Shown here: piece by piece, positions 10,274 through 22,195 of the stretch
Numbering within the stretch: position 1 is the stretch's first letter
Layout of the letters: each line of letters opens with the position of its first letter
Assembly (NCBI GenBank): GCA_963771275.1
Contig: CAVYSW010000003.1
Coordinates: 192,001 to 256,000, forward strand
Reading direction: 5' to 3'
DNA: 64,000 bases
Source: an uncultured Gemmatimonadales bacterium
Lineage (GTDB): Bacteria; Gemmatimonadota; Gemmatimonadetes; Gemmatimonadales; GWC2-71-9
Program-made: the position numbers and the translations under genes
The notes under the pieces: model-generated
What the model saw: the letters and a program-made list of their open reading frames with translations, nothing else
What the model was told of the DNA's origin: nothing
Databases searched by the model: none

Positions 10274-10735
10274 CTAGCTAGGCTCCTCGTTCAAAGGGGA
10301 CTGAGAGGCCATCTGTACTGATTCGGCGATCCGCCACTGTACGAAGACCACCTCGAACCAGCTATACCCCTCTCGCCGGAACAGGGCCCGGTAGCTCGGC
10401 ACGGTCAGACGAGTGCGAGTTGGCGCAGCATGCTCGATACGCAAACAGGCAATCTCACCGTGGCCCCAATTGACCGACGCCGAGCCACCCACCATGCCGT
10501 CCACAAGATCGTTAACGAGGTGAAGGTCGCTCACGCCCAGGAAACGAATGGAGACGATCCGGCGGCTGACTCCTGTCGACCGAACGCTGCCATCGTCCTG
10601 CCAGACGAAGTCGATGTCGACGTTGAGCGACGTACCCCAGTCCAGCCACTCAACGCCGACGACGACACACTCCTCAAAATCGCGGTAGGCGTGCACTTGA
10701 GCGCGTAGCGCCGCGAGCTCGTTCACCGGTTCCAT
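10274..10735 (-). CDS. Putative immunity protein of the RHS toxin
   Basis: 153 aa, low-GC codons; start overlaps the toxin's 3' end by 13 nt, the usual toxin-immunity coupling. Confidence 0.7.
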   Translation of the reverse strand: MEPVNELAALRAQVHAYRDFEECVVVGVEWLDWGTSLNVDIDFVWQDDGSVRSTGVSRRIVSIRFLGVSDLHLVNDLVDGMVGGSASVNWGHGEIACLRIEHAAPTRTRLTVPSYRALFRREGYSWFEVVFVQWRIAESVQMASQSPLNEEPS

Positions 10736-11355
10736 ATCGTCAAGTGAGTCGTAGCATTCGAGCCCGGGTTTCCCATCGCGTCAAGATAGTTGCCGGCGGC
10801 GTTCTTCGCGCGCATGTACCACCCGTTCGCGCCGCGCATAAGCCGAACTTCTTCACCGGTGCCGTTAGTAAACAGATAGCCCTGCTTGTTCTCGGCTAGC
10901 CTCATTGCGAAGCCGCCCTCCTTCAGGGCCGCGCGAATACCAATGATCGATTCATCGGCAAGTGCGCCACCCTCCGAGAATAGCGCCCGGAGCCCGGCAC
11001 TCGCGCCCTTGAGTCCACGACCGATCGCCCCGCCGCCGACGGTGAAGGCCGCCATCGCAAGGCCACGCCCGGCGTGACCACTACCTATGTCGTAGCCTGC
11101 GTCAAAGGCGGCGCTGATCGGATTGAAGTCATTGACTGCGTTGAGCGCGGCGGCACCGTTCAAGACTACACCGCCTACAACGCCACCCTTCTGCGCGCCC
11201 CAATTCGCGGCTTGCTGAAGGCAGTCTTCGATCGGCGGGCACAGCCCAAACGGGTCGCTGAAGTTGACCGGATCCCCGTTGGCGAAGCCATAGAGGTAGC
11301 CCGCCGGCGTAGCCGATCGGGTCTTCCTGGGTAAGACACCCGGTCGCCGTGTTGG
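10723..11355 (-). pseudogene. Orphan RHS-core plus C-terminal toxin cassette, two frameshifts
   Basis: Reads TATGCLTQEDPIGYAGG, shift ~11300, YLYGFANGDPVNFSDPFGL-CPPIEDCLQQAANW, shift ~11200, GAQKGGVVGGVVLNGAAAL...VRLMRGANGWYMRAKNAAGNYLDAMGNPGSNATTHLTIWNR*. PxxxxDPxGL is the RHS hallmark. Confidence 0.85.
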
Positions 11356-11526
11356 GCTACGATTTCGCCGCGCTAACCGCCTGCGACTCGCTCCCTTAGC
11401 CGCTCACCCCTCCTGATTCTTGATCGTAATCTGCACTCAAAACCGCCGACGTGCACTTCCGAGGGGGGGTGGGGCGCGCTTGGGGGGTCGGGGACCGTCT
11501 CAGCAGGGTGCGGTTTCAACCGCGGC

Positions 11527-11892
11527 CTACGAGTCGGGGTGATACTCCCGGATCTGGTCGCGATGAACGATCCACAGCTTTCCCGCCACAGGGCGAGCGG
11601 GCGCCGCCTGTACCAGGGTCCGGACCGCGTGCCGGAGCGCCGCCTGCGTGGCCCGTGCCGGCAATCGGATCACCACGATGCCACTGTACGAGGCGGGGTG
11701 AAAGAGCAGCGGATTGCCGAACTCGAGGTCCAAGGTGACCAGGCAGCGTGCCTCCCTATGGGCGGCGTCCAGGACGCGCCGATCAGACGCTCCCTGGAGT
11801 TCCTCTTCACCCACGGTGATCACATCGTGCGCCGCCGCCCGCAGGGCGTCGGCGACCGCCTGGCCGAGGTTCTCGTCGAGCTTGAAGTTCAC
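11527..11892 (-). CDS. DUF5615-type PIN-like protein (putative toxin)
   Basis: FKLDENL..LRAAAHDV..GASDRRVL..LVTLDLEFG; coupled (GTGA) to the DUF433 gene. Confidence 0.85.
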   Translation of the reverse strand: MNFKLDENLGQAVADALRAAAHDVITVGEEELQGASDRRVLDAAHREARCLVTLDLEFGNPLLFHPASYSGIVVIRLPARATQAALRHAVRTLVQAAPARPVAGKLWIVHRDQIREYHPDS

Positions 11893-12134
11893 GCCCCCGC
11901 GCCAGAGACATCCACGTAACGCTCGCGCGCCATCTCGGCCCCGTACGCGATGCAGGCGCGGATGTCCTCAGCCGTGAGGTCCGGGTACTGTGTGAGAATC
12001 TCCTCGACCGTCATCCCGTCGGCCAGGAAGTCGAGCACCAACGACACCCAGATACGGTGTCCTCGAATGCACGGCTTCCCAAAACAGACGTTCGGGTCCA
12101 CCGTAATGCGAGCCAGCAGCGTGTCACGATCCAC
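11889..12134 (-). CDS. DUF433 family protein (putative antitoxin)
   Basis: RITVDPNVCFGKPCIRGHRIWV..GMTVEEILTQYPDLTAEDIRACIAY; GGAGG RBS before GTG 12134. Confidence 0.92.
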   Translation of the reverse strand: MDRDTLLARITVDPNVCFGKPCIRGHRIWVSLVLDFLADGMTVEEILTQYPDLTAEDIRACIAYGAEMARERYVDVSGAGA

Positions 12135-12182
12135 GGGCGCCCCTCCACGATGGAAAGCTAGTGGCGGCCTCGCTACCCCGCC

Positions 12183-12674
12183 ATGTCCGCTCCCGAGCCT
12201 CAGCTGATGATGGCTACGCTCGTCCTGGACTGCATGCCCCGGCCCCGGCCCGACGACTTCGCCCCCCGCCTCGCCGCCCTGCGGAAGGCGCGCCGCCTCA
12301 CCCAGCAGGCCCTGGCCGAGCAGGTGGGCCTCCACGTCATGCAAATCCACCGCTACGAGGCCGGCACCTCCCAGCCTACGCTCGATGTCATCCGCCGCTT
12401 AGCCGTCACGTTGGGCGTCACCGCCGACGAGCTCGTCTTCGGCCCCGACGCTCGCGGGCCCGACCAGGACCTCAAGCTCCAGTTTGAAGCGGTGAGTCGG
12501 TTCAGCCGCGAGGAAAAACGCGCCGCCCGGGACCTCCTCGATGCCCTCATCCTCAAACACCAAGCCCGGCACCACCCCATTGCGCCGGCGCGTGCTGGGT
12601 CACCACCGGCGCGTTCTCGCACTTCCGCCGCGCACCATGAAGCGTCGGGGCGCGGCATCGTGCACCCACAATGA
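12183..12674 (+). CDS. XRE-family HTH transcriptional regulator
   Basis: RLAALRKARRLTQQALAEQVGLHVMQIHRYEAGTSQPTLDVIRRLAVTLGVTADELVFG; exact start uncertain (12183-12235). Confidence 0.88.
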   Translation: MSAPEPQLMMATLVLDCMPRPRPDDFAPRLAALRKARRLTQQALAEQVGLHVMQIHRYEAGTSQPTLDVIRRLAVTLGVTADELVFGPDARGPDQDLKLQFEAVSRFSREEKRAARDLLDALILKHQARHHPIAPARAGSPPARSRTSAAHHEASGRGIVHPQ

Positions 12675-12842: not shown

Positions 12843-13786
12843 CTAGATGCGGCCCAGCGCCCGGGCGTGGAACCCGATCAGCTTGTAGACCAGCTTGGCG
12901 GCGAGGAAATCGGGGGCGACCATCCCGGGAATCGGCGCCAGCTCCACGACGTCGGCGCCCACCACGTTGCGCTCCCGGAACACGCGGTCGAGGAAGCGAA
13001 TCGTGGAGTTCCACTGCCCGCCGCCCGGCTCGGGGGTACCGGTCGCGGGCACGCAGGCCGGGTCGAAGTAGTCCACGTCGATCGTGAGGTAGACGTCCGG
13101 CCCCAGCCCGGCGATCGCCCGATCCATCCAGGACTCATCCTCCAGCTCGTGGCCGAACACCACGGTCATGCGCCGGCGCCGCTGGAGCGCCCGTTCCTCG
13201 GCGGTGAGCGAACGGATGCCCACCTGCACCAGCTTCACGCGCTCGTGCACCGTGTGCATCACGCACGCGTGGGACAGCGGCGTGCCCTCGTACTCCGCGC
13301 GCAGGTCGGCGTGCGCGTCGAGCTGGAGCACCGACAGCTTCCCCTTCTTCTGCCGGTCGGCATGGGCGAGGATCGGCGGGCCCGAGACGCTGTGCTCGCC
13401 GCCCAGCATGATGACGAACTTGCCGGTGGGAAGCAGGGCGTCGAACGCCTGCGCAACTCGCGCGAGCGCGCGCGCGGGCCCCGCCCCCGAGAGCAGCAGC
13501 GTCGGGCAGGGTGTGCACGCCGATGCGTGTAGGGCTCCGCGTCGAGCTCGTGGTCGTACAGCTCGACGAACCGCGACGCGTGGAGCAACGCGCGCGGTCC
13601 GAACCGGGTGCCCCCCATGTAGGAGACCGTCGCCTCGTAGGGGACCGGGAGGATCAGCACCGCGGCGCCGTCGTAGCGCGCCGCGTCCTCGGGGAGGCCA
13701 AGGAGATTCTCCGCGGGAGCCCAGCCGAGCCGCTCGAGCGCCTTGGTGTGGCCCTCCACCCGACCGCCGCCGCGGAACTCGTTCAC
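12843..13786 (-). pseudogene. speB: Agmatinase, frameshifted near 13505-13525 (true pseudogene or sequence error)
   Basis: N-part (PVPYEATVSYMGGTRFGP) and C-part (LGGEHS, LDAHADLR, GIRS, TIDVDYFDP, TGTPEPGG, DVVELAP) lie in different frames; linker IGVHTLP is in the third frame. Confidence 0.88.
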
Positions 13787-14357: not shown

Positions 14358-14860
14358 CGTGCTGTCCCCTCGCGCTCAATGGTTCCGGCCCGCACCGTCA
14401 CGGCATGTCGGCGGCACTCGCCGCACTCCCCGTAGATCTCCCACCGATGACGATGGTGCAGATACCCGTGCTCCTCGGCGATGGCCGTGCTCATCCGCTC
14501 GACGCGCGCGGTGGCGAACTCCACCACGCGGCCACAGCGCACGCAGATCAGATGCTCGTGATAGCCGCGCGCCGCCAACGGCTCGTACCGCCTGAACCCC
14601 TCACCGAAATCGTGCTCCTGCAGCAGGCCCGCCTTGACCAGCAGCTCGAGCGTGCGGTAGACGGTCGCCTTGCCGACGTGCTCCGCCTGCTCGGCCAGCG
14701 CAAGCTCGATCTCGGGCACCGACACGTGACGATCCGCGTAGAACACGGCGGCCGCCACGACTTCGCGCTGGCGCGTCACAGGCAACCCGTGCTCATGCAG
14801 GTACTGGCGAAACGCCCCCATCAGGAGGGCGCCGTCAGCGCGCGGCGGGGGATTGGTCAC
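14354..14860 (-). CDS. Fur-family metalloregulator
   Basis: TRQREVV, ATVYRTLELL, HEHLICVRCGRVVEF, YGECGEC; start approximate (GTG 14860). Confidence 0.92.
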   Translation of the reverse strand: MTNPPPRADGALLMGAFRQYLHEHGLPVTRQREVVAAAVFYADRHVSVPEIELALAEQAEHVGKATVYRTLELLVKAGLLQEHDFGEGFRRYEPLAARGYHEHLICVRCGRVVEFATARVERMSTAIAEEHGYLHHRHRWEIYGECGECRRHAVTVRAGTIEREGTAR

Positions 14861-15272
14861 GGTCGTCGAACCAGGTCGCCGGCACGATCTCGAGTGGCGG
14901 CTCCGCCTCGCCCGCACGCTGCTGCACGCCGCGGATCACCTCGGGGAGCACGTCATCGGGCGTCTCGCCCACGTCTTCGACCCCCACCTGCCCCTGCCCC
15001 CGCTCCCGCCCGCGCACCACGAGGTGGTAGCTGCCGGTGTACACTCGCAGCCGGCCCGCGCTGACGCGCCGGGCAATCACCGCCGTGCCCCACTCCCGGT
15101 CCTCGCCGCGCATGGGCGGAAACAGCCACGCGCGCTCGATCTCGGCAACCGGCATGGTCCGGGCAACCTCCTCCGCCACGCGCCGCCAGCCGAGCGGCAG
15201 GCCTGCCGCCGCGGCGGGGCGCGACGGCGCGCGCGCCGCCTCGAGGTCTGGCGCAGGACGGGGCTCGGTCAC
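14835..15272 (-). CDS. Hypothetical protein
   Basis: 145 aa with high-GC3 codons; preceded by a promoter; overlaps the fur-like gene. Confidence 0.7.
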   Translation of the reverse strand: MTEPRPAPDLEAARAPSRPAAAAGLPLGWRRVAEEVARTMPVAEIERAWLFPPMRGEDREWGTAVIARRVSAGRLRVYTGSYHLVVRGRERGQGQVGVEDVGETPDDVLPEVIRGVQQRAGEAEPPLEIVPATWFDDRDQSPAAR

Positions 15273-15337: not shown

Positions 15338-17752
15338 CTACAGCAGGGAGACCGGGTCGCGGTCGACCACGAGCCGCACCGCACCCCGCGGGCCGAGGGG
15401 CGCCCGTCGCGCGGTATAACGCGCCAGCCGACCCAGCAGCGCGCGATCCGTCGCGCGCAGCAGCAGGTGCCAGCGCCAGCGCGCCTTGATCCGGGCGAGT
15501 GGGGCGGGGGCCGGGCCGACGATCTCCACGCCGGGCGCCCGGGCGGCCACCACGCCCCGGAGCCAATCCGCCAGCGCCACCGCCGCGTCCGCGACGACAG
15601 GTTCTCGCGTCCCGCTCACCAGCACGTTGACCAACCCCACCGTCGGCGGATAGGCCGGCGACTGGCGGGCCACCAGCTCGCTCGCCGCGAACCCCTCGAA
15701 GTCGTGTCGGGCCGCCGCCGTCAGCGCGGCGTGGTCCGGACTCCGCGTCTGCACCAGCACAGCTCCCCCGCGCGGGCCGCGGCCCGCCCGACCCGCCACC
15801 TGCGCGATCAGCTGGAACGTCCGCTCCGCCGCGTGGAAATCGGGCAGATGGAGCCCGGTGTCCGCGTCCACCACACCCACCAGCGTCACATTCGGGAAAT
15901 CGAGTCCCTTGGCGATCATCTGCGTCCCGAACAGCACGTCGACATCACCGGTCCGCACGCCGTCGAGAATGCGCGCGTGCGACCACTTCGTGCCCGTGGT
16001 GTCGGCGTCCATCCGCGCGAGCCGGGCCGCCGGATACCGGATCGCGAGCCAGCGCTCGAGCTCCTGCGTCCCCACACCGCGCGTCCGCTGCGCCGGGGCG
16101 CCACACTGCCGGCAGGCCTCGGGCACCGCCGTGTCGTGCCCGCAATAATGGCAGCGCAGCCGGGGCGGGGTGCGATGGACGGTGAGCGCAATGGAGCAGT
16201 GCGGACATTCCCACACGAAGCCGCACCGCGCGCATTGCAGGAAATGCGCGAGGCCGCGCCGGTTGAGCAGCAGCAGGACCTGTTCCCCGGTGGCGAGCCG
16301 CGCCTCCACCGCCTGGTCGAGCGCGCGCGACCACGGCACCGCGCCCGCCGCCGGCACGCGCGGCGCGCTGCGGAGATCGATCAGCTCCACGGGCGGGAGC
16401 GGACGCGCTCCCACCCGGTCGGGGAGGCGGACCAGCGTGAGGCGCTCGCGGGCGGCCCACGTCTCGAGCGCCGGCGTCGCGCTGGCGAGCACCACCCGCG
16501 CGCCCTGCAGCCGTGCCCGCGCGAGCGCCACGTGCCGCGCGTGATAGCGCGGCAGCTCGCCGTTCTTGTAGCTCGGGTCGTGCTCCTCGTCCACCACGAT
16601 GGCCCCGAGGTCCGTTAGCGGCGCGAACACCGCCGAACGGGCGCCCACAATCACCCGCCGCCGGCCCGCGGCCACCGCCCGCCACGCGTCCGTCCGCTCG
16701 GCGTCGGACAGGGCGCTGTGCAGCACCGCCACGTCCTCCCCGAACACCCCCCGCACCCGCGCGATCGTCTGGGGCGTGAGGGCGATCTCCGGCACGAGCA
16801 CGATGGCACCGCGTCCCGCGCGCACCAGCGGGCGGATCGCCTCCAGATAGACCAGCGTCTTCCCGCTGCCCGTGACCCCGAACAGCAGCGCGGCCTCGCC
16901 CGCCGGCATGCCGGCGAGCGTCTCCAAGGCGGCCTGCTGCGCGGGCCCGGGCTGCACCGGCGGCTCGGCCCGCACGTCGGCGAAGGGATCGCGCAGCCGC
17001 TCGCGCTCCTCGATGCGCGCGAGCCCGCGCTCGGCGAGCGCATGGAGAATCGCCGGGGAGAAGCCGAGCTGGTGCGTGAGATGCGACCACGCCGCCTCGC
17101 CGCCCGCGGCGTCGATCGCGTCGTACGCAGCCCGCTGCCGCGCCGCGCGAGCGAAGGTCCGCTCGCGATCCGCGAGCGACGGCAGCGCGCGCACGAGCAC
17201 CACGACCCGCTCGTGCCCGGCCGTCGGCCCGAGCGCGGGAGCTTCGGTCTCGAGCGTCACGGCACCCGCGCGGCTGAGCCGCTGCAGCACGTCCCACACC
17301 GGGCGGCCGACCTTCCGGGCGAGCTGCGTTGCCGGCGCGCGCCCGCCCGCGCGCTCCAGCGCCGTGAGCACATCGCGGCTGGCGCCTCCCCCCGCGCTGG
17401 TGGGATGACGGACCTCGGCGATGAGACGCGATTCCCCCCAGAGCGGGCCTGGCAGCATCGCGCGGAGGCACAGGCCCAGCGGCGTCGCGTAGTAGCGGCT
17501 GATCCACCCGGCGAGCGTGAGCAAGGGGCGTGGCACGAGCGGTGCCGGGTCGGGCGCCAGCAGAACCGCCTTGAGGTCCGCCGTCGGTTCGTCGCCCAGA
17601 TCGAGAACGACGCCGACCATTTCCCGCCCGCGCACCGGCACGACGACGCGCGCCCCGGCGACGACGCGATCGGCCAGGCTCTCGGGCACGGCGTAGCGGT
17701 ACGGCTGGGGCGCGGGAAGCGGAAGCACCACCCGACACGTGGTCGGGATCAC
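15338..17752 (-). CDS. priA: Primosomal protein N' (replication restart helicase)
   Basis: LFGVTGSGKT, LVPEIALTPQ, GARSAVFAP, DEEHD, two CxxC..CxxC zinc sites, GTQMIAKGLDFPNV, QVAGRAGR, VDRDPVSLL; start likely GTG 17752. Confidence 0.97.
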   Translation of the reverse strand: MIPTTCRVVLPLPAPQPYRYAVPESLADRVVAGARVVVPVRGREMVGVVLDLGDEPTADLKAVLLAPDPAPLVPRPLLTLAGWISRYYATPLGLCLRAMLPGPLWGESRLIAEVRHPTSAGGGASRDVLTALERAGGRAPATQLARKVGRPVWDVLQRLSRAGAVTLETEAPALGPTAGHERVVVLVRALPSLADRERTFARAARQRAAYDAIDAAGGEAAWSHLTHQLGFSPAILHALAERGLARIEERERLRDPFADVRAEPPVQPGPAQQAALETLAGMPAGEAALLFGVTGSGKTLVYLEAIRPLVRAGRGAIVLVPEIALTPQTIARVRGVFGEDVAVLHSALSDAERTDAWRAVAAGRRRVIVGARSAVFAPLTDLGAIVVDEEHDPSYKNGELPRYHARHVALARARLQGARVVLASATPALETWAARERLTLVRLPDRVGARPLPPVELIDLRSAPRVPAAGAVPWSRALDQAVEARLATGEQVLLLLNRRGLAHFLQCARCGFVWECPHCSIALTVHRTPPRLRCHYCGHDTAVPEACRQCGAPAQRTRGVGTQELERWLAIRYPAARLARMDADTTGTKWSHARILDGVRTGDVDVLFGTQMIAKGLDFPNVTLVGVVDADTGLHLPDFHAAERTFQLIAQVAGRAGRGPRGGAVLVQTRSPDHAALTAAARHDFEGFAASELVARQSPAYPPTVGLVNVLVSGTREPVVADAAVALADWLRGVVAARAPGVEIVGPAPAPLARIKARWRWHLLLRATDRALLGRLARYTARRAPLGPRGAVRLVVDRDPVSLL

Positions 17753-17759
17753 GGCGCGC

Positions 17760-18668
17760 TCACAGGGCCCCGAGATGGGCAATCGCCGCGTCGGCGATGC
17801 GCCGCGGCTCGTACCCGCCCTCGAGCACCGACGCCACCGGGGCGTCGAGCGCGCGCCAGCGCGCGACCCACGTCGCGTAGTCCTCCGGCTCGAGCGTGAA
17901 GCCTGCGAGCGGATCGCCCGCCATGGCGTCGAACCCCGCCGAGATCAGGATCAGCTGCGGCGTCCAGTGCTCCGTGGCGCGCGCGACCGCCGCGTCGAGC
18001 GCCGCGACATACTCCGCGCGGGGGCGGCCGGGCGGCCGCGGCACGTTGAACACGTTCCCGACGCCGCGCTCATCGGCGCGGCCCGTGCCGGGGTAGAGCG
18101 GCCACTGGTGCAGCGAGACGTAGCGAATCCGCGGCTCGCGCTCCACCAGCGCCTGCGTGCCGTTGCCGTGATGCACGTCCCAGTCGACGATCAGCACGCG
18201 CTCGAGGCCGTGGTCGTCGAGTGCCGCACGCGCCGCGATCACGACGTTGTTCAGCAGACAGAACCCCATGGCGCGGTCGGCGAGCGCATGATGGCCCGGC
18301 GGCCGGACCGGGGCGAACGCGGGGACGCCGCCGAGCGCCGACTCCGCGGCCGCGACCGCCGCCCCGGCGGCGTGCAGCGCCGCCGCAAAGCTGCCGGCGC
18401 TCATCACCGTATCGGCGTCGAGAATGCCGCCGCCGGCCGAAGCCAGCCGCTCGAGCCGGTCGACGTAGGCCTGGGGGTGCACACGCTCCACGGCGGGGCG
18501 CGCGGCCGCTGGCGCGTCGATGAAGTCGAGCCGCGGGGCGACGGAGCTGCGGCGCAGCATGGCGAGCATCGTGCGCACGCGCTCCGGCGATTCGGGATGC
18601 CCCGACCCCGGCTGATGCTCCAGCGTCGCAGGGTGCGAGAAGATGCGGATGCGCGGGGCCGCCGTCAT
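17760..18668 (-). CDS. Histone deacetylase-family Zn-dependent amidohydrolase
   Basis: HPESPER, RPPGHHA, GFCLLNN, DWDVHHGNGTQ, SLHQ..YPGTG, SAGFDA..DPL, LEGGY all intact. Confidence 0.95.
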   Translation of the reverse strand: MTAAPRIRIFSHPATLEHQPGSGHPESPERVRTMLAMLRRSSVAPRLDFIDAPAAARPAVERVHPQAYVDRLERLASAGGGILDADTVMSAGSFAAALHAAGAAVAAAESALGGVPAFAPVRPPGHHALADRAMGFCLLNNVVIAARAALDDHGLERVLIVDWDVHHGNGTQALVEREPRIRYVSLHQWPLYPGTGRADERGVGNVFNVPRPPGRPRAEYVAALDAAVARATEHWTPQLILISAGFDAMAGDPLAGFTLEPEDYATWVARWRALDAPVASVLEGGYEPRRIADAAIAHLGAL

Positions 18669-18680
18669 CGTGACGGCGGC

Positions 18681-18947
18681 TCAGCGCGGGTGGTCGCGCA
18701 GCGTCTTGGCGAGATCTCCCAGCTCACCGCGCAGGGCGTTCCGGGCGTCGGCCAGCTCCTCGAGGCGCTTCACGTAGCGGCGTCGCAGCACCAGCACGCC
18801 GATCGCTCCGGCACCGAACACGCCGCCCCAGGCCACGAGCCACGGGCGCGCGGACCACAGCCCCGCCAGCACCAGCAGCGCGGCGTCGAGCACCAGCACT
18901 CCCGCCGCCAGCACGGTCAGGGCCCGCGCGGGATGCCGGTGCTTCAC
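18681..18947 (-). CDS. Small two-TM membrane protein with C-terminal coiled coil
   Basis: Two hydrophobic helices then RRRYVKRLEELADARNALRGELGDL; GTG start 18947. Confidence 0.7.
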   Translation of the reverse strand: MKHRHPARALTVLAAGVLVLDAALLVLAGLWSARPWLVAWGGVFGAGAIGVLVLRRRYVKRLEELADARNALRGELGDLAKTLRDHPR

Positions 18948-18957
18948 CCGCGCGGCG

Positions 18958-19227
18958 TCACCAGACCGGTCGGCGACGCCCGGGCAGCACGATGAGCGGA
19001 GCACCATCGGCCAGCTGGAGCCCCGCCACCGTCACGTGCTCGTCGAGCACGAGCGCACCGCGATACTTGATCACGTAGGCTGCGGGATCCAGCGACCGCC
19101 CGGTCGCGGCGGCGAGCGCCTGCTGCTTGACCGCCGCGAGCGTGAGCTCGGGAGACGCCTCCAGCTCGACGTGATCCCACGTGTCCGTCACCATCACCCG
19201 GAGCCGCACCGCGCTCGCCGTGGTCAC
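18958..19227 (-). CDS. Ubiquitin-like (beta-grasp; YukD/EsaB-like) protein
   Basis: Pattern matches ubiquitin elements: VRLRVMV / HVELEASPELTLAAVKQQAL / YVIKYRGALVLDE / VTVAGLQLADGAPLIVL; ends PGRRRPVW with no GG. Confidence 0.75.
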   Translation of the reverse strand: MTTASAVRLRVMVTDTWDHVELEASPELTLAAVKQQALAAATGRSLDPAAYVIKYRGALVLDEHVTVAGLQLADGAPLIVLPGRRRPVW

Positions 19228-19496
19228 ACGGTCTCCTGCTCAAGCGCCGGCAGCGTCGACAGGAATCGGTCGATCGTCTGATCGAACAGCAGGGAGGACG
19301 AGCGCACGCGCGTCCCGCCCTCCACCGGGAAAGCCGCGACGACGATCTCTTCCCCACCCTGGCCGCGAAACGTCGCCCAGGTGGGTCCTTCCCCCTCCAG
19401 GAACGCGCCGAAATGCGGCACGCGCTCCGCAAAGAACTGCTTCGCGCGGCGCAGCACTTCGTCGGCCGCGAGCGATGTCGTCATGTCATGCAGCAT
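19224..19496 (-). CDS. Hypothetical alpha/beta protein, 90 aa
   Basis: Strong GGAGG RBS; stop overlaps the Ubl start (GTGA). Confidence 0.8.
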   Translation of the reverse strand: MLHDMTTSLAADEVLRRAKQFFAERVPHFGAFLEGEGPTWATFRGQGGEEIVVAAFPVEGGTRVRSSSLLFDQTIDRFLSTLPALEQETV

Positions 19497-19561
19497 GGGC
19501 TCCTCCGCCCCGCCACGGGGGCTTTCGGCGGCCCGGGAAAGCTAACGCGCGGCGCGCGCCC

Positions 19562-22195
19562 CTAGAAGGCCACCCGCAGTCGGCTCAGCAGCAGGCGGCC
19601 GATGGGCGGCGCCCCCACCATCTCCTGGTGCCGATTGTCGAGCACGTTCTGCACGGTGAGGGTGAGGCCGGCCCCGAGCGTCCCCGGGAGCCGCAGGCCG
19701 ACCGTGACGTCCACCACGCCGTACGACGCGACCCGCCCCTCATACACGCCATTGGAGACGGGGAACGCGGCCACGACACGCGCGCGCACGGCCGCCGTCA
19801 CGCCGGCCGCCGGGCCACGGTACGTGAGGGCGAGCGTACCCTTGTTGCGCGGCGCGTTGAGATAGACCGTCCCGACCCGCTGGACGTTCGGCAGCGTGTC
19901 GTTGCTCGTCCAGGAGTAGGACGCCGAGGCGGCGAAGCGATCCGAGAGCGCGAAGCGCAGCTCGACGTCCGCGCCCCACAGGGTGTACGCGCCGCCCCGC
20001 TTGTTCACGACGAGGATGTCGTACGGGTGCAGCGCCTCGGTGGGGGAGACGGTGCCGGCGGGAAGCTGGCTCAGCGTGTCGGCGAGCATGGCGGCCGTGT
20101 CGGCGGGGAGATACGTCGCGAGGTAGGCGTAGAGCATGTCGCGGTCGAAGAACGCGTTGGGTGTCGCCGTGACCAGCGGGCCCGCAACGTCCCGCACCCG
20201 ATTGGCCCACACGGATACGCCGGCCTCCAACCGCCGGGCGACCTGCCCCTTGTAGCCCAGCTCCACCACGTTCGTGATCGTGCGCCCTTCCCCCTCGATA
20301 TCGGTCACGTCGGCGGCGGCGATCGGGACGAACGTCCCCGAGCTGATGTCGAGCAGGCCGAGGTGCGTGGCGATGTCGGCGGACGTGGGCGCCGGAATGC
20401 CGGAGAGATCCACGCCGAACTGCGGGGCGGCGAGCACCACGGCGGGCCAGAGCAGCGTCGCGTCCGTCGGGATGTAGGCGTTGGGATCGCTCAGGTTGAA
20501 CGGGCTCCGCATGCACAATCCGCCGCCGCAATCCCGGCGGAACGTGAAGCCGTCCTTCGGCACCCCGACGCCGCGCACGCTGTACCCCAGGCTGCCCACG
20601 ATCGCGATGCGCGCGTACTCGAGATCGAGGAACAGGTCGTTCGCGTCCGGCGACGTGAACGCCCGGTTGTACGTGAGCCGCAGCGCCTGGGTGGGGGCGG
20701 GGCGGAACACGACCGCGGCCCGGGGTGAAAGCACGACGTCGTTCAGCCGGTTGTGGTGATCCACCCGCAAGGCGCCGATCAGCCGGAGCCGCGGGCCCAC
20801 CGGCCCCTCGGCAGTGAGATACGCGCCGAGCTCGGCCACCTGATCGGCGCTCTCGTTCGCCCCGTCGATCGTGCCGCCGGTGCGTGGATCGGTCCAGCGG
20901 CCGTCCACGCCGTACAGCAGGTCGACGCCGCCCAGCCGGCCGCCGTGCTGCAGCTGGGTCACCAGCACCCGGGAGCTGTCCACCAGGGGCGCGCCGTTCC
21001 GCAGCAGGTAGGAGTTGCCCGCATTCTGCCAGTCGTAGACGAGATTCGCGAACAGCCGGTCGCGCCGCGCGCGGAGCTGCACGTAGCCGTTGCGCCAGTC
21101 TTCCCCCTGGACGGCCCCGAACCCCGAGGTCATGTCGATCGCATGGACCGCGTCCACGATCCCCCCCGACGCCACCACCTCGGTCCGCACGTCGGGCCGC
21201 CAGTCGACGCGCAGATCCGCCGCGAGGCGCTCGACGGTCGAGTCCCGCCGTCCGACGCGGAGCGTCGCGGGGTCGGCCCCGGTCGCGATCGAGTCCACGC
21301 GGTTCTTGACCTCGGTGGAGTCGGTATACGGCCAGTCGTGCCCACGCAGCAGCTCCCCGGACAGCTTGACGCCGAACGTGCGGCTCAGCGCGGCGGCGTA
21401 GCGGAAGCTCCCGCCCAGCACCGCGCGCGTGCCGCCGCTGAGCGTCACCGTCCCGCCGGGAAAGTCGAGCGGCGAGCGGGTCAGCAGGTGCACCACCCCG
21501 CTCGGCGCCCCGGGGCCGTACAGCGCGGACGCGGGGCCGCTGATCACCTCGATTCGGTCGACATCCTCGTTCGTCGCCGGGATCATGTACGGCACGTTGA
21601 ACGCGTAGGAAGGGAGCGCCGCGTAGCGATAGTCGTTGAGCAGCAGCAGCGCGCCCGAGTTGACCGTGTTCGTCCCGCGCGCGCTGAAGGTCTGCTGGAT
21701 CAGGCCCTTTTCCGCGGCGTTCACGCCCGGCACCTGCGCGACGTGCTGCAGGGGAGACGCCGTCGGCGCCTCCTCGATCTCGCGGCGGCCCACCACCGAC
21801 GCGGCCGTCGGCGCGTCGAGCGCCGTTTCTTCGCTGCGGGACGCGCTCACGATCACGGGATCGAGCGGCGTGCCCAGCGGGAGCAGCCGGATGACGAGCG
21901 AATCGCGGCCCTGTCCGGCCGACACCCCCTCGAGCACGCGGGGCGCGTAGCCCACGCGCGTGAGCCGCAGCCGGTACGTGCCGGCGGGCACCCCCCCGAA
22001 CACGAACCCGCCCTGCCAGCCGGTGATGACGGCACGCCGCAGGCCGGCCCCCTCCAGCTCCACGCGCACGGTGCTGACCGGCACGTTGGCCACCGAGTCC
22101 AGCACGGTGCCGCGCACCTGCTGCGCCACGGCCGGCGCCGCAGCCACGGCAATCGCGATGGTGATGCGCGAGGCGAGCGACACGACACGGGACAT
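19562..22195 (-). CDS. TonB-dependent receptor with N-terminal carboxypeptidase-regulatory-like domain
   Basis: Signal peptide; VRGTVLDS..GTYRLRLTRVGY; plug motif DRIEVISGPASALYG..GVVHLLTR; VQNVLD; terminal Phe. Confidence 0.93.
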   Translation of the reverse strand: MSRVVSLASRITIAIAVAAAPAVAQQVRGTVLDSVANVPVSTVRVELEGAGLRRAVITGWQGGFVFGGVPAGTYRLRLTRVGYAPRVLEGVSAGQGRDSLVIRLLPLGTPLDPVIVSASRSEETALDAPTAASVVGRREIEEAPTASPLQHVAQVPGVNAAEKGLIQQTFSARGTNTVNSGALLLLNDYRYAALPSYAFNVPYMIPATNEDVDRIEVISGPASALYGPGAPSGVVHLLTRSPLDFPGGTVTLSGGTRAVLGGSFRYAAALSRTFGVKLSGELLRGHDWPYTDSTEVKNRVDSIATGADPATLRVGRRDSTVERLAADLRVDWRPDVRTEVVASGGIVDAVHAIDMTSGFGAVQGEDWRNGYVQLRARRDRLFANLVYDWQNAGNSYLLRNGAPLVDSSRVLVTQLQHGGRLGGVDLLYGVDGRWTDPRTGGTIDGANESADQVAELGAYLTAEGPVGPRLRLIGALRVDHHNRLNDVVLSPRAAVVFRPAPTQALRLTYNRAFTSPDANDLFLDLEYARIAIVGSLGYSVRGVGVPKDGFTFRRDCGGGLCMRSPFNLSDPNAYIPTDATLLWPAVVLAAPQFGVDLSGIPAPTSADIATHLGLLDISSGTFVPIAAADVTDIEGEGRTITNVVELGYKGQVARRLEAGVSVWANRVRDVAGPLVTATPNAFFDRDMLYAYLATYLPADTAAMLADTLSQLPAGTVSPTEALHPYDILVVNKRGGAYTLWGADVELRFALSDRFAASASYSWTSNDTLPNVQRVGTVYLNAPRNKGTLALTYRGPAAGVTAAVRARVVAAFPVSNGVYEGRVASYGVVDVTVGLRLPGTLGAGLTLTVQNVLDNRHQEMVGAPPIGRLLLSRLRVAF

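Follow-up and report, generated by a model that had tools for sequence, protein, structure and literature searches.

A conserved two-gene module encoding a ubiquitin-like protein and a predicted KA1-like partner in Gemmatimonadales

To our knowledge, bacterial proteins as close to ubiquitin in fold as the one described here occur mainly in antiphage conjugation operons, type VII secretion systems (T7SS) and a few enzyme complexes. In Bil and Bub operons the ubiquitin-like protein is encoded together with an E1, an E2 and a peptidase (PMC11601603), and type II BilA has, close to its end, a Gly that is conserved universally (10.1101/2023.09.26.559546). YukD is reported as not conjugated (PMC1779556), and YukD and TmoB as adaptors or assembly factors that are not conjugated (PMC1779556 and PMC1949818). 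Here, a ubiquitin-like protein of 89 amino acids (hereafter Ubl) and the 90-residue protein encoded directly upstream of it (hereafter U90) were investigated in an uncultured Gemmatimonadales bacterium, taking as a starting point a stretch of 64,000 nt of contig CAVYSW010000003.1 (hereafter the window), whose source and positions are given in the first lines of this document. U90 and Ubl form a real, conserved and uncharacterised two-gene module, whereas the five-gene system including a deacetylase of the HDAC family and PriA, put forward in a preliminary description of the locus, was unsupported.

The locus comprises five genes, all on the minus strand, and a putative promoter element:

19539..19544, minus strand: TAGCTT, a -10-like box and putative promoter element, 42 nt upstream of the U90 start
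19224..19496, minus strand: U90, 90 amino acids, predicted KA1/NAF-like fold, no Pfam or NCBIfam match; conserved partner gene of Ubl, from a family that occurs throughout the class
18958..19227, minus strand: Ubl, 89 amino acids, predicted ubiquitin-like beta-grasp protein with a basic tail of the RR(R/Q)PVR type, as judged from structure, profile and tail statistics
18681..18947, minus strand: putative two-transmembrane-segment (2TM) protein, 88 amino acids, by hydropathy (two peaks, 2.5 and 1.8) and presence counts an accessory neighbour in only part of family f1
17760..18668, minus strand: HDAC-family deacylase, class-II-like, 302 amino acids, PF00850; normally a syntenic neighbour of the pair, but no obligate partner
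15338..17752, minus strand: replication restart helicase PriA, 804 amino acids from a GTG start, TIGR00595 with 568 bits, over the cut-off; end of the conserved glyQS...priA synteny block

Intergenic distances of -4, 10, 12 and 7 nt, with Ubl overlapping the U90 stop by 4 nt, were confirmed on the sequence, as were the GGAGGAG ribosome-binding site and the TAGCTT box upstream of U90. Of 123 distinct loci, 66 had a TANNNT motif in the 70 nt preceding U90, compared to 39.0 ± 4.4 expected from 500 mononucleotide shuffles, so that the U90-Ubl unit probably has its own promoter. A strict sigma-70 scan found no promoter, and the leader upstream of U90 showed no stable RNA structure (z +1.2).

The distribution of both genes was surveyed in 300 genomes of the phylum Gemmatimonadota plus genome G000. 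Up to four of the genomes counted are unpublished (G181, G057, G156 and G096; locus L023 is from G181), and no claim depends on these alone. Related genomes do not count as independent, and the sets of loci share members and favour close relatives. The Ubl profile matched 122/124 genomes of family f1, 68/70 of f2 and 3/3 of f3 (Gemmatimonadales, 193/197), together with 1/1 of f5 and 23/23 of f6, and gave no match in the genomes of f4 (6), f7 (47), f8 (4) and f9–f12 (22). Ubl is a single-copy gene with one exception among the genomes, and its distribution is a core, not a defence-island, pattern. The U90 profile matched the same families and, in addition, 4/4 genomes of f8 and 7/47 of f7; a broader U90 profile matched f7 (10/10), f4 (1/1) and f8 (3/3), with no match in f9 (0/3) or other classes (0/10).

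U90 and Ubl were adjacent in 29/29, 16/16, 17/17 and 2/2 loci of the four Gemmatimonadales sets picked by Ubl, in 76/76 loci picked by U90 (the best 80 of 539, from which 4 incomplete ones were dropped), and in 30/30 loci of f5/f6. In f6 the two genes stand alone as a unit, with opposite-strand genes on both flanks in 10 of 13 loci; two of the remaining loci have a same-strand DEAD-box gene and one is uninformative. The pairing of Ubl with the 90-residue protein proposed earlier thus holds as tight gene coupling; we infer binding between the two from gene context alone, and also infer a role for the tail and co-transcription. In G269 an apparent U90-Ubl fusion shows the end of U90 in a different frame, which was read as a frameshift.

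The rest of the gene order was far less conserved. The 2TM gene followed Ubl in 14/29, 9/16, 0/17 and 0/2 loci of the Ubl-picked sets and in 41/74 of the U90-picked set, and was missing from 19/19 loci of f2/f3; the membrane anchor ascribed to it is not borne out by so patchy an occurrence. HDAC followed Ubl in 26/29, 16/16, 10/17 and 2/2 loci (72/74 U90-picked). PriA came directly after HDAC in only 1/12, 0/16, 0/10 and 0/2 (7/67 U90-picked), and neither the suggested link to replication restart nor the recruitment of HDAC is supported; an enolase-family enzyme, a kinase, CorA or a methyltransferase usually lies between them. The exact five-gene order was found in 2 of the 73 loci with U90 called, 59 of which showed five genes. 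In genus g19, U90-Ubl is kept and the HDAC orthologue is missing (3/3); conversely, G098, G027 and G063 keep HDAC and have no Ubl. Five f2 loci without adjacent HDAC still carry it 7–8 kb downstream, behind a MoxR cluster (5/5 checked), and in f5/f6 an HDAC orthologue was present elsewhere in 7/7 genomes checked, the f6 pair lying far from it. By these comparisons HDAC, 2TM and PriA appear to be passengers of synteny, and HDAC and PriA are in themselves ordinary proteins.

The ubiquitin likeness of Ubl, proposed earlier from alignment by eye, was borne out by profile and structure. The family profile matched ubiquitin chains among PDB sequences, reproducing that alignment, and placed the Gly-Gly of ubiquitin on Arg-Pro of Ubl. 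An AlphaFold2 model built with 59 sequences reached a predicted local distance difference test score (pLDDT) of 92. Its top Foldseek match was the bacterial ubiquitin-like protein BilA (8tyx, template modelling score (TM) 0.81), and VIA structure comparison retrieved BilA (8tyz; Z 12.7, root-mean-square deviation (rmsd) 1.9 Å, 81 aligned residues) followed by ubiquitin, SUMO and NEDD8. Ubl is thus predicted to have a five-stranded ubiquitin-like beta-grasp fold. Against Pfam it gave a borderline match to DUF2604 (25.1 bits, cut-off 25), with YukD under the cut-off; weak YukD matches were seen in 28 of 59 Ubl members (best E 3e-5), the PADLOC BilA model matched 1/59 (E 0.009), and ThiS matched 0/59.

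The basic PGRRRPVW tail of the window's Ubl belongs to a strongly conserved RR(R/Q)PVR type, in which the Gly of that tail is not conserved: it occurs at that position in 4 of 58 Gemmatimonadales Ubls, and no position of their tails has a conserved Gly. Cleavage after this Gly, for which a test was suggested previously, is unlikely because the residue is not conserved. Because 0/58 sequences end in Gly, the Gemmatimonadales Ubl is predicted not to be conjugatable by the E1 route, in agreement with its first description as non-conjugated.

Orthologues of this Ubl in f5/f6 (L107-L136; some deposited as Ca. Palauibacter hypothetical proteins) have in common with it R10, W17, K34 and E63 and end differently. 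Their C-terminus is (Y/F)DLGHxxFxG, with a final Gly in 30/30 loci and, within the best 120 of 535 homologues, in 101/102 Gly-type proteins, compared to 0/58 and 0/18 Arg-tailed ones. E or R precedes this final Gly, and the Gly-Gly consensus is absent from both tail types. Mean net charge also differs, being +1.7 for the Arg-tailed proteins and -6.2 for the f5/f6 orthologues, whose surface is acidic.

U90 has no Pfam or NCBIfam family match; its profile found nothing meaningful among PDB sequences, and Foldseek returned no match at E 0.001 or better. Its AlphaFold2 model (pLDDT 91) shows a beta-alpha-beta4-alpha fold, for which the closest folds by VIA are KA1/NAF domains (Chk1 KA1, 5wi2, and CIPK14, 2zfd; Z 9.4). 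PDB 1v8c, a Thermus protein that joins a MoaD domain to a fold of this kind, ranked 24 (Z 7.3, rmsd 1.9 Å, 66 aligned), a weak, fold-level lead. U90 is acidic (mean net charge -2.7) and has a nearly invariant RGQGGEE loop; a search for longer forms gave 5 proteins. One contig labelled Bacillota (L218) carries a Gemmatimonadales-type U90 with 61% identity and is likely misbinned, the other 79 of 80 homologue records being labelled Gemmatimonadales or Gemmatimonadota.

A midpoint-rooted tree of 53 U90 sequences resolved two clades (support 95/94), with the window's U90 in clade I. The partner of Ubl is a clade I U90 in Gemmatimonadales and a clade II U90 in f5/f6, and because of this the link between Ubl and the U90 family has survived a change of paralogue. 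The clade I U90 of f5/f6/f8 precedes moaD-moaE in 8/8 loci. New here are the Gly-terminated f5/f6 orthologues of Ubl behind a different U90 paralogue, and the position of clade I U90 before moaD-moaE in those families.

Further contexts of U90 genes were noted. Directly upstream of moaD-moaE-moaA in f5/f6/f8, clade I U90 is often downstream of HU (L071-L075, L077-L079, L087-L092, L095). A second Gemmatimonadales paralogue, with a GGHY motif and a conserved tail ending in AY, GY or AF (G000:C6:91369-91659; L101-L105, L256-L257), adjoins copper ATPase/CopZ or pyruvate dehydrogenase genes. The clade II U90 of f4/f7/f8 follows a DsbA-like gene and often precedes a DEAD-box helicase gene (L080, L081, L247-L255, L258-L260). 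It carries its own tail, LPY(E/Q)(P/H)GD, in 11 of 14 loci scanned, for which a loose resemblance to the Gly-type Ubl tail is speculative.

Searches for partner systems were largely negative. No E1, E2, JAB or peptidase gene was adjacent to Ubl in 40 wide, Gemmatimonadales-centred loci, where annotation covered the recurrent clusters and some of the single genes. With JAB models, the sole match in the window's genome was RadC-like and under the cut-off. The Prok-E2_B model, the one E2 model searched, matched 0/5 genomes and none of the control genomes either. The T7SS substrate family WXG100 was found in 0/19 genomes (controls positive, 3/14), in line with the earlier separation of Ubl from T7SS, and no ESAT-6/FtsK or monooxygenase neighbourhood was found in the loci annotated. 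The Pup-ligase family was found in 0/19 genomes (control positive, 1/14), and CDC48_N in 3/19, all three Ubl-negative. T7SS, Pup/UBact and UBX/Cdc48 partners were rejected on these counts. MoeB-type E1 was present in 20/20 genomes, and five genomes with Gly-type Ubl had a single ThiF match and therefore no dedicated E1. Inter-protein coevolution by mean-field direct coupling analysis, of low power (130 pairs, effective 103), gave no signal for U90-Ubl (top z 5.0, shuffled 5.4 and 5.9); U90-HDAC and Ubl-HDAC reached 5.7 and 5.5. Complex prediction for U90 with Ubl, run with alignments, scored 0.00 and was used as evidence neither way. No description of the U90-Ubl pair was found in the literature covered, outside which lay most subscription papers and preprint supplements on Bil/Bub operons.

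The reading we favour, which we would call an even bet, is that of a non-covalent beta-grasp adaptor pair in which U90, as a KA1-like partner, binds Ubl and a lineage-specific tail sets specificity. U90-Ubl would be a housekeeping module of two translationally coupled genes with their own promoter, lying within the Gemmatimonadales glyQS...HDAC...priA block; Ubl would be a non-conjugated ubiquitin-fold adaptor and U90 its binding partner, and specificity would most likely come from the conserved C-terminal tail, RR(R/Q)PVR here and (Y/F)DLGHxxFxG in f5/f6. This reading is put forward because of the U90 upstream of every Ubl in the loci read, the isolated f6 unit, the change of paralogue, the moaD neighbourhood of clade I in f5/f6/f8 and the weak 1v8c parallel. 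Several observations weigh against it. The KA1-like scores of U90 (Z 8–9) are only modestly above background, and DUF1952 (PF09189), which we take to be the C-terminal family of 1v8c, was matched neither by the U90 genes of 5 genomes (E up to 1) nor by any of 31 aligned members. Genus g58 has U90 joined directly to HDAC, with Ubl cleanly deleted (2/2), and clade II U90 is present without Ubl in f4, f7 and f8. In the loci read, no beta-grasp gene neighbours the clade II paralogue of Gemmatimonadales, and the HU-moaD-moaE locus of the window's genome lacks U90. Finally, a pure adaptor would not be expected to have the nearly invariant terminal Gly seen in the f5/f6 orthologues.

The persistence of U90 without Ubl in g58, f4, f7 and f8, together with the generally conservative gene order of the region, would also suit linkage without a direct complex, U90 and Ubl then being small housekeeping proteins that act independently and have a promoter in common. 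This we hold to be unlikely, since in the loci read, including the stand-alone f6 unit and across the paralogue switch, Ubl never occurs without an upstream U90. The f5/f6 Gly-type Ubl is a candidate orphan modifier. On a wider version of that idea, an orphan covalent modifier or sulfur carrier, the ancestral terminal Gly would have been activated by a shared MoeB-type E1, then kept in f5/f6 and lost in Gemmatimonadales. The Gly ending (101/102, with invariant D-L-G-H and F, and 30/30 loci agreeing), a moeB gene in the region around the pair in 10 of 13 f6 loci and a MoaD neighbour for clade I U90 in f5/f6 all fit. However, the penultimate residue is not Gly, the five Gly-type genomes have their single ThiF match, and the f6 moeB has its own GG-ending ThiS-like partner, with a JAB and a pyridoxal phosphate-dependent enzyme also present in some loci. 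The idea is moreover inapplicable to the window's Ubl, which has no terminal Gly, and taken as a whole we find it quite unlikely. For the f6 loci, a link between moeB and Ubl was discarded as probable synteny with a distinct sulfur-relay cluster. That cluster encodes a ThiS-like protein, free or fused, and MoeB-rhodanese (L138-L144, L147, L149, L151). An unlikely but broader proposal is that U90 proteins are bacterial KA1-fold receptors for beta-grasp proteins and their tails, Ubl or MoaD depending on the lineage, and that Ubl switches between a Gly-terminated, activatable modifier in f5/f6 and a non-conjugatable, Arg-tailed adaptor in Gemmatimonadales.

A nucleic-acid-binding Ubl was also considered, whose Arg-rich tail would bind RNA in the manner of the SF3A1 UBL domain, U90 acting as cofactor. 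The complex of that domain with U1 snRNA (8id2) is among the structural matches of Ubl (Z 11.5), the tail is basic, and glyQS lies nearby in Gemmatimonadales, as do DEAD-box helicase and HU genes in f5/f6. Many ubiquitin-fold proteins score as well as 8id2, though, and the f5/f6 orthologues are acidic, so RNA binding seems very unlikely. The model of the preliminary description, in which a membrane-anchored adaptor of Ubl and U90 would recruit or regulate a lysine deacetylase and have a tie to replication restart, draws on the presence of HDAC after Ubl in most Gemmatimonadales loci, its retention 7–8 kb downstream where the MoxR cluster intervenes and its orthologues elsewhere in f5/f6 genomes. 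Against it stand the rarity of the five-gene order, the missing 2TM gene in f2/f3, and the occurrence of Ubl without HDAC in g19 and of HDAC without Ubl in three genomes, which together make it highly improbable.

A core single-copy Ubl throughout the order Gemmatimonadales points to a housekeeping use of the ubiquitin fold, and the two orthologous tail types, with and without terminal Gly, offer a natural experiment on the interconversion of conjugatable and non-conjugatable ubiquitin-like proteins. If the proposal of U90 receptors and a tail switch were true, it would describe a housekeeping, non-defence ubiquitin-like system without dedicated E1 or E2. A U90 orthologue deposited for cultured Gemmatimonas aurantiaca (WP_012682402.1) makes the pair testable in a cultured species.

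Other features of the window were recorded. A TonB-dependent receptor gene (19562-22195, minus strand) is inserted between a zincin-like gene and U90; only 1 of 73 related loci has it immediately before U90. On the other side, a 145-residue protein without Pfam or NCBIfam match (14835-15272, minus strand) has a TATCTT box just upstream of its gene, which is conserved before fur and a pyruvoyl arginine decarboxylase gene. An agmatinase-like gene after the latter (12843-13786, minus strand) is apparently split over two frames near 13400-13520, a possible frameshift. A role for HDAC as polyamine deacetylase alongside these enzymes is not favoured by its sequence: it matches PF00850 with 5e-81, and its nearest single-domain PDB entry is the lysine deacylase 5zmp (3e-69), with acetylpolyamine amidohydrolases at 1e-35 or weaker. 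The region 10274-12674, a cluster of lower coding score with two unknown open reading frames and a helix-turn-helix regulator, looks like an insertion and presumably includes a toxin-antitoxin-like pair.

Compared with described systems, U90 has the same predicted beta-alpha-beta4-alpha fold as the KA1/NAF domains of Chk1, SAD-B and CIPK and the C-terminal domain of 1v8c, but U90 is bacterial, acidic and free-standing, and no link to them was seen at sequence level. With MoaD, ThiS and CysO, Ubl has the beta-grasp fold in common, and the U90 orthologue of f5/f6/f8 precedes moaD-moaE-moaA; Ubl is nevertheless nearer to ubiquitin by profile and structure and lacks Gly-Gly, and the window's genome has its own MoaD elsewhere. 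Among the BilA and BubA proteins, BilA is the best match by structure, with DUF2604 a borderline one by sequence, whereas the Gemmatimonadales Ubl is a core single-copy gene without such an operon in the loci annotated. The conserved C-terminal Gly, exposed or exposable, of Bil/Bub proteins is absent from the Gemmatimonadales Ubl and present in its f5/f6 orthologues (101/102). YukD/EsaB and TmoB resemble Ubl in being stand-alone ubiquitin-like domains without Gly-Gly, with weak YukD matches in the family; they differ in context, no WXG100 (0/19 genomes) and no T7SS or monooxygenase neighbourhood in the annotated loci accompanying Ubl, whose partner gene encodes a KA1-like protein. By analogy, Ubl would most likely work as YukD or TmoB do, as a non-conjugated beta-grasp adaptor.

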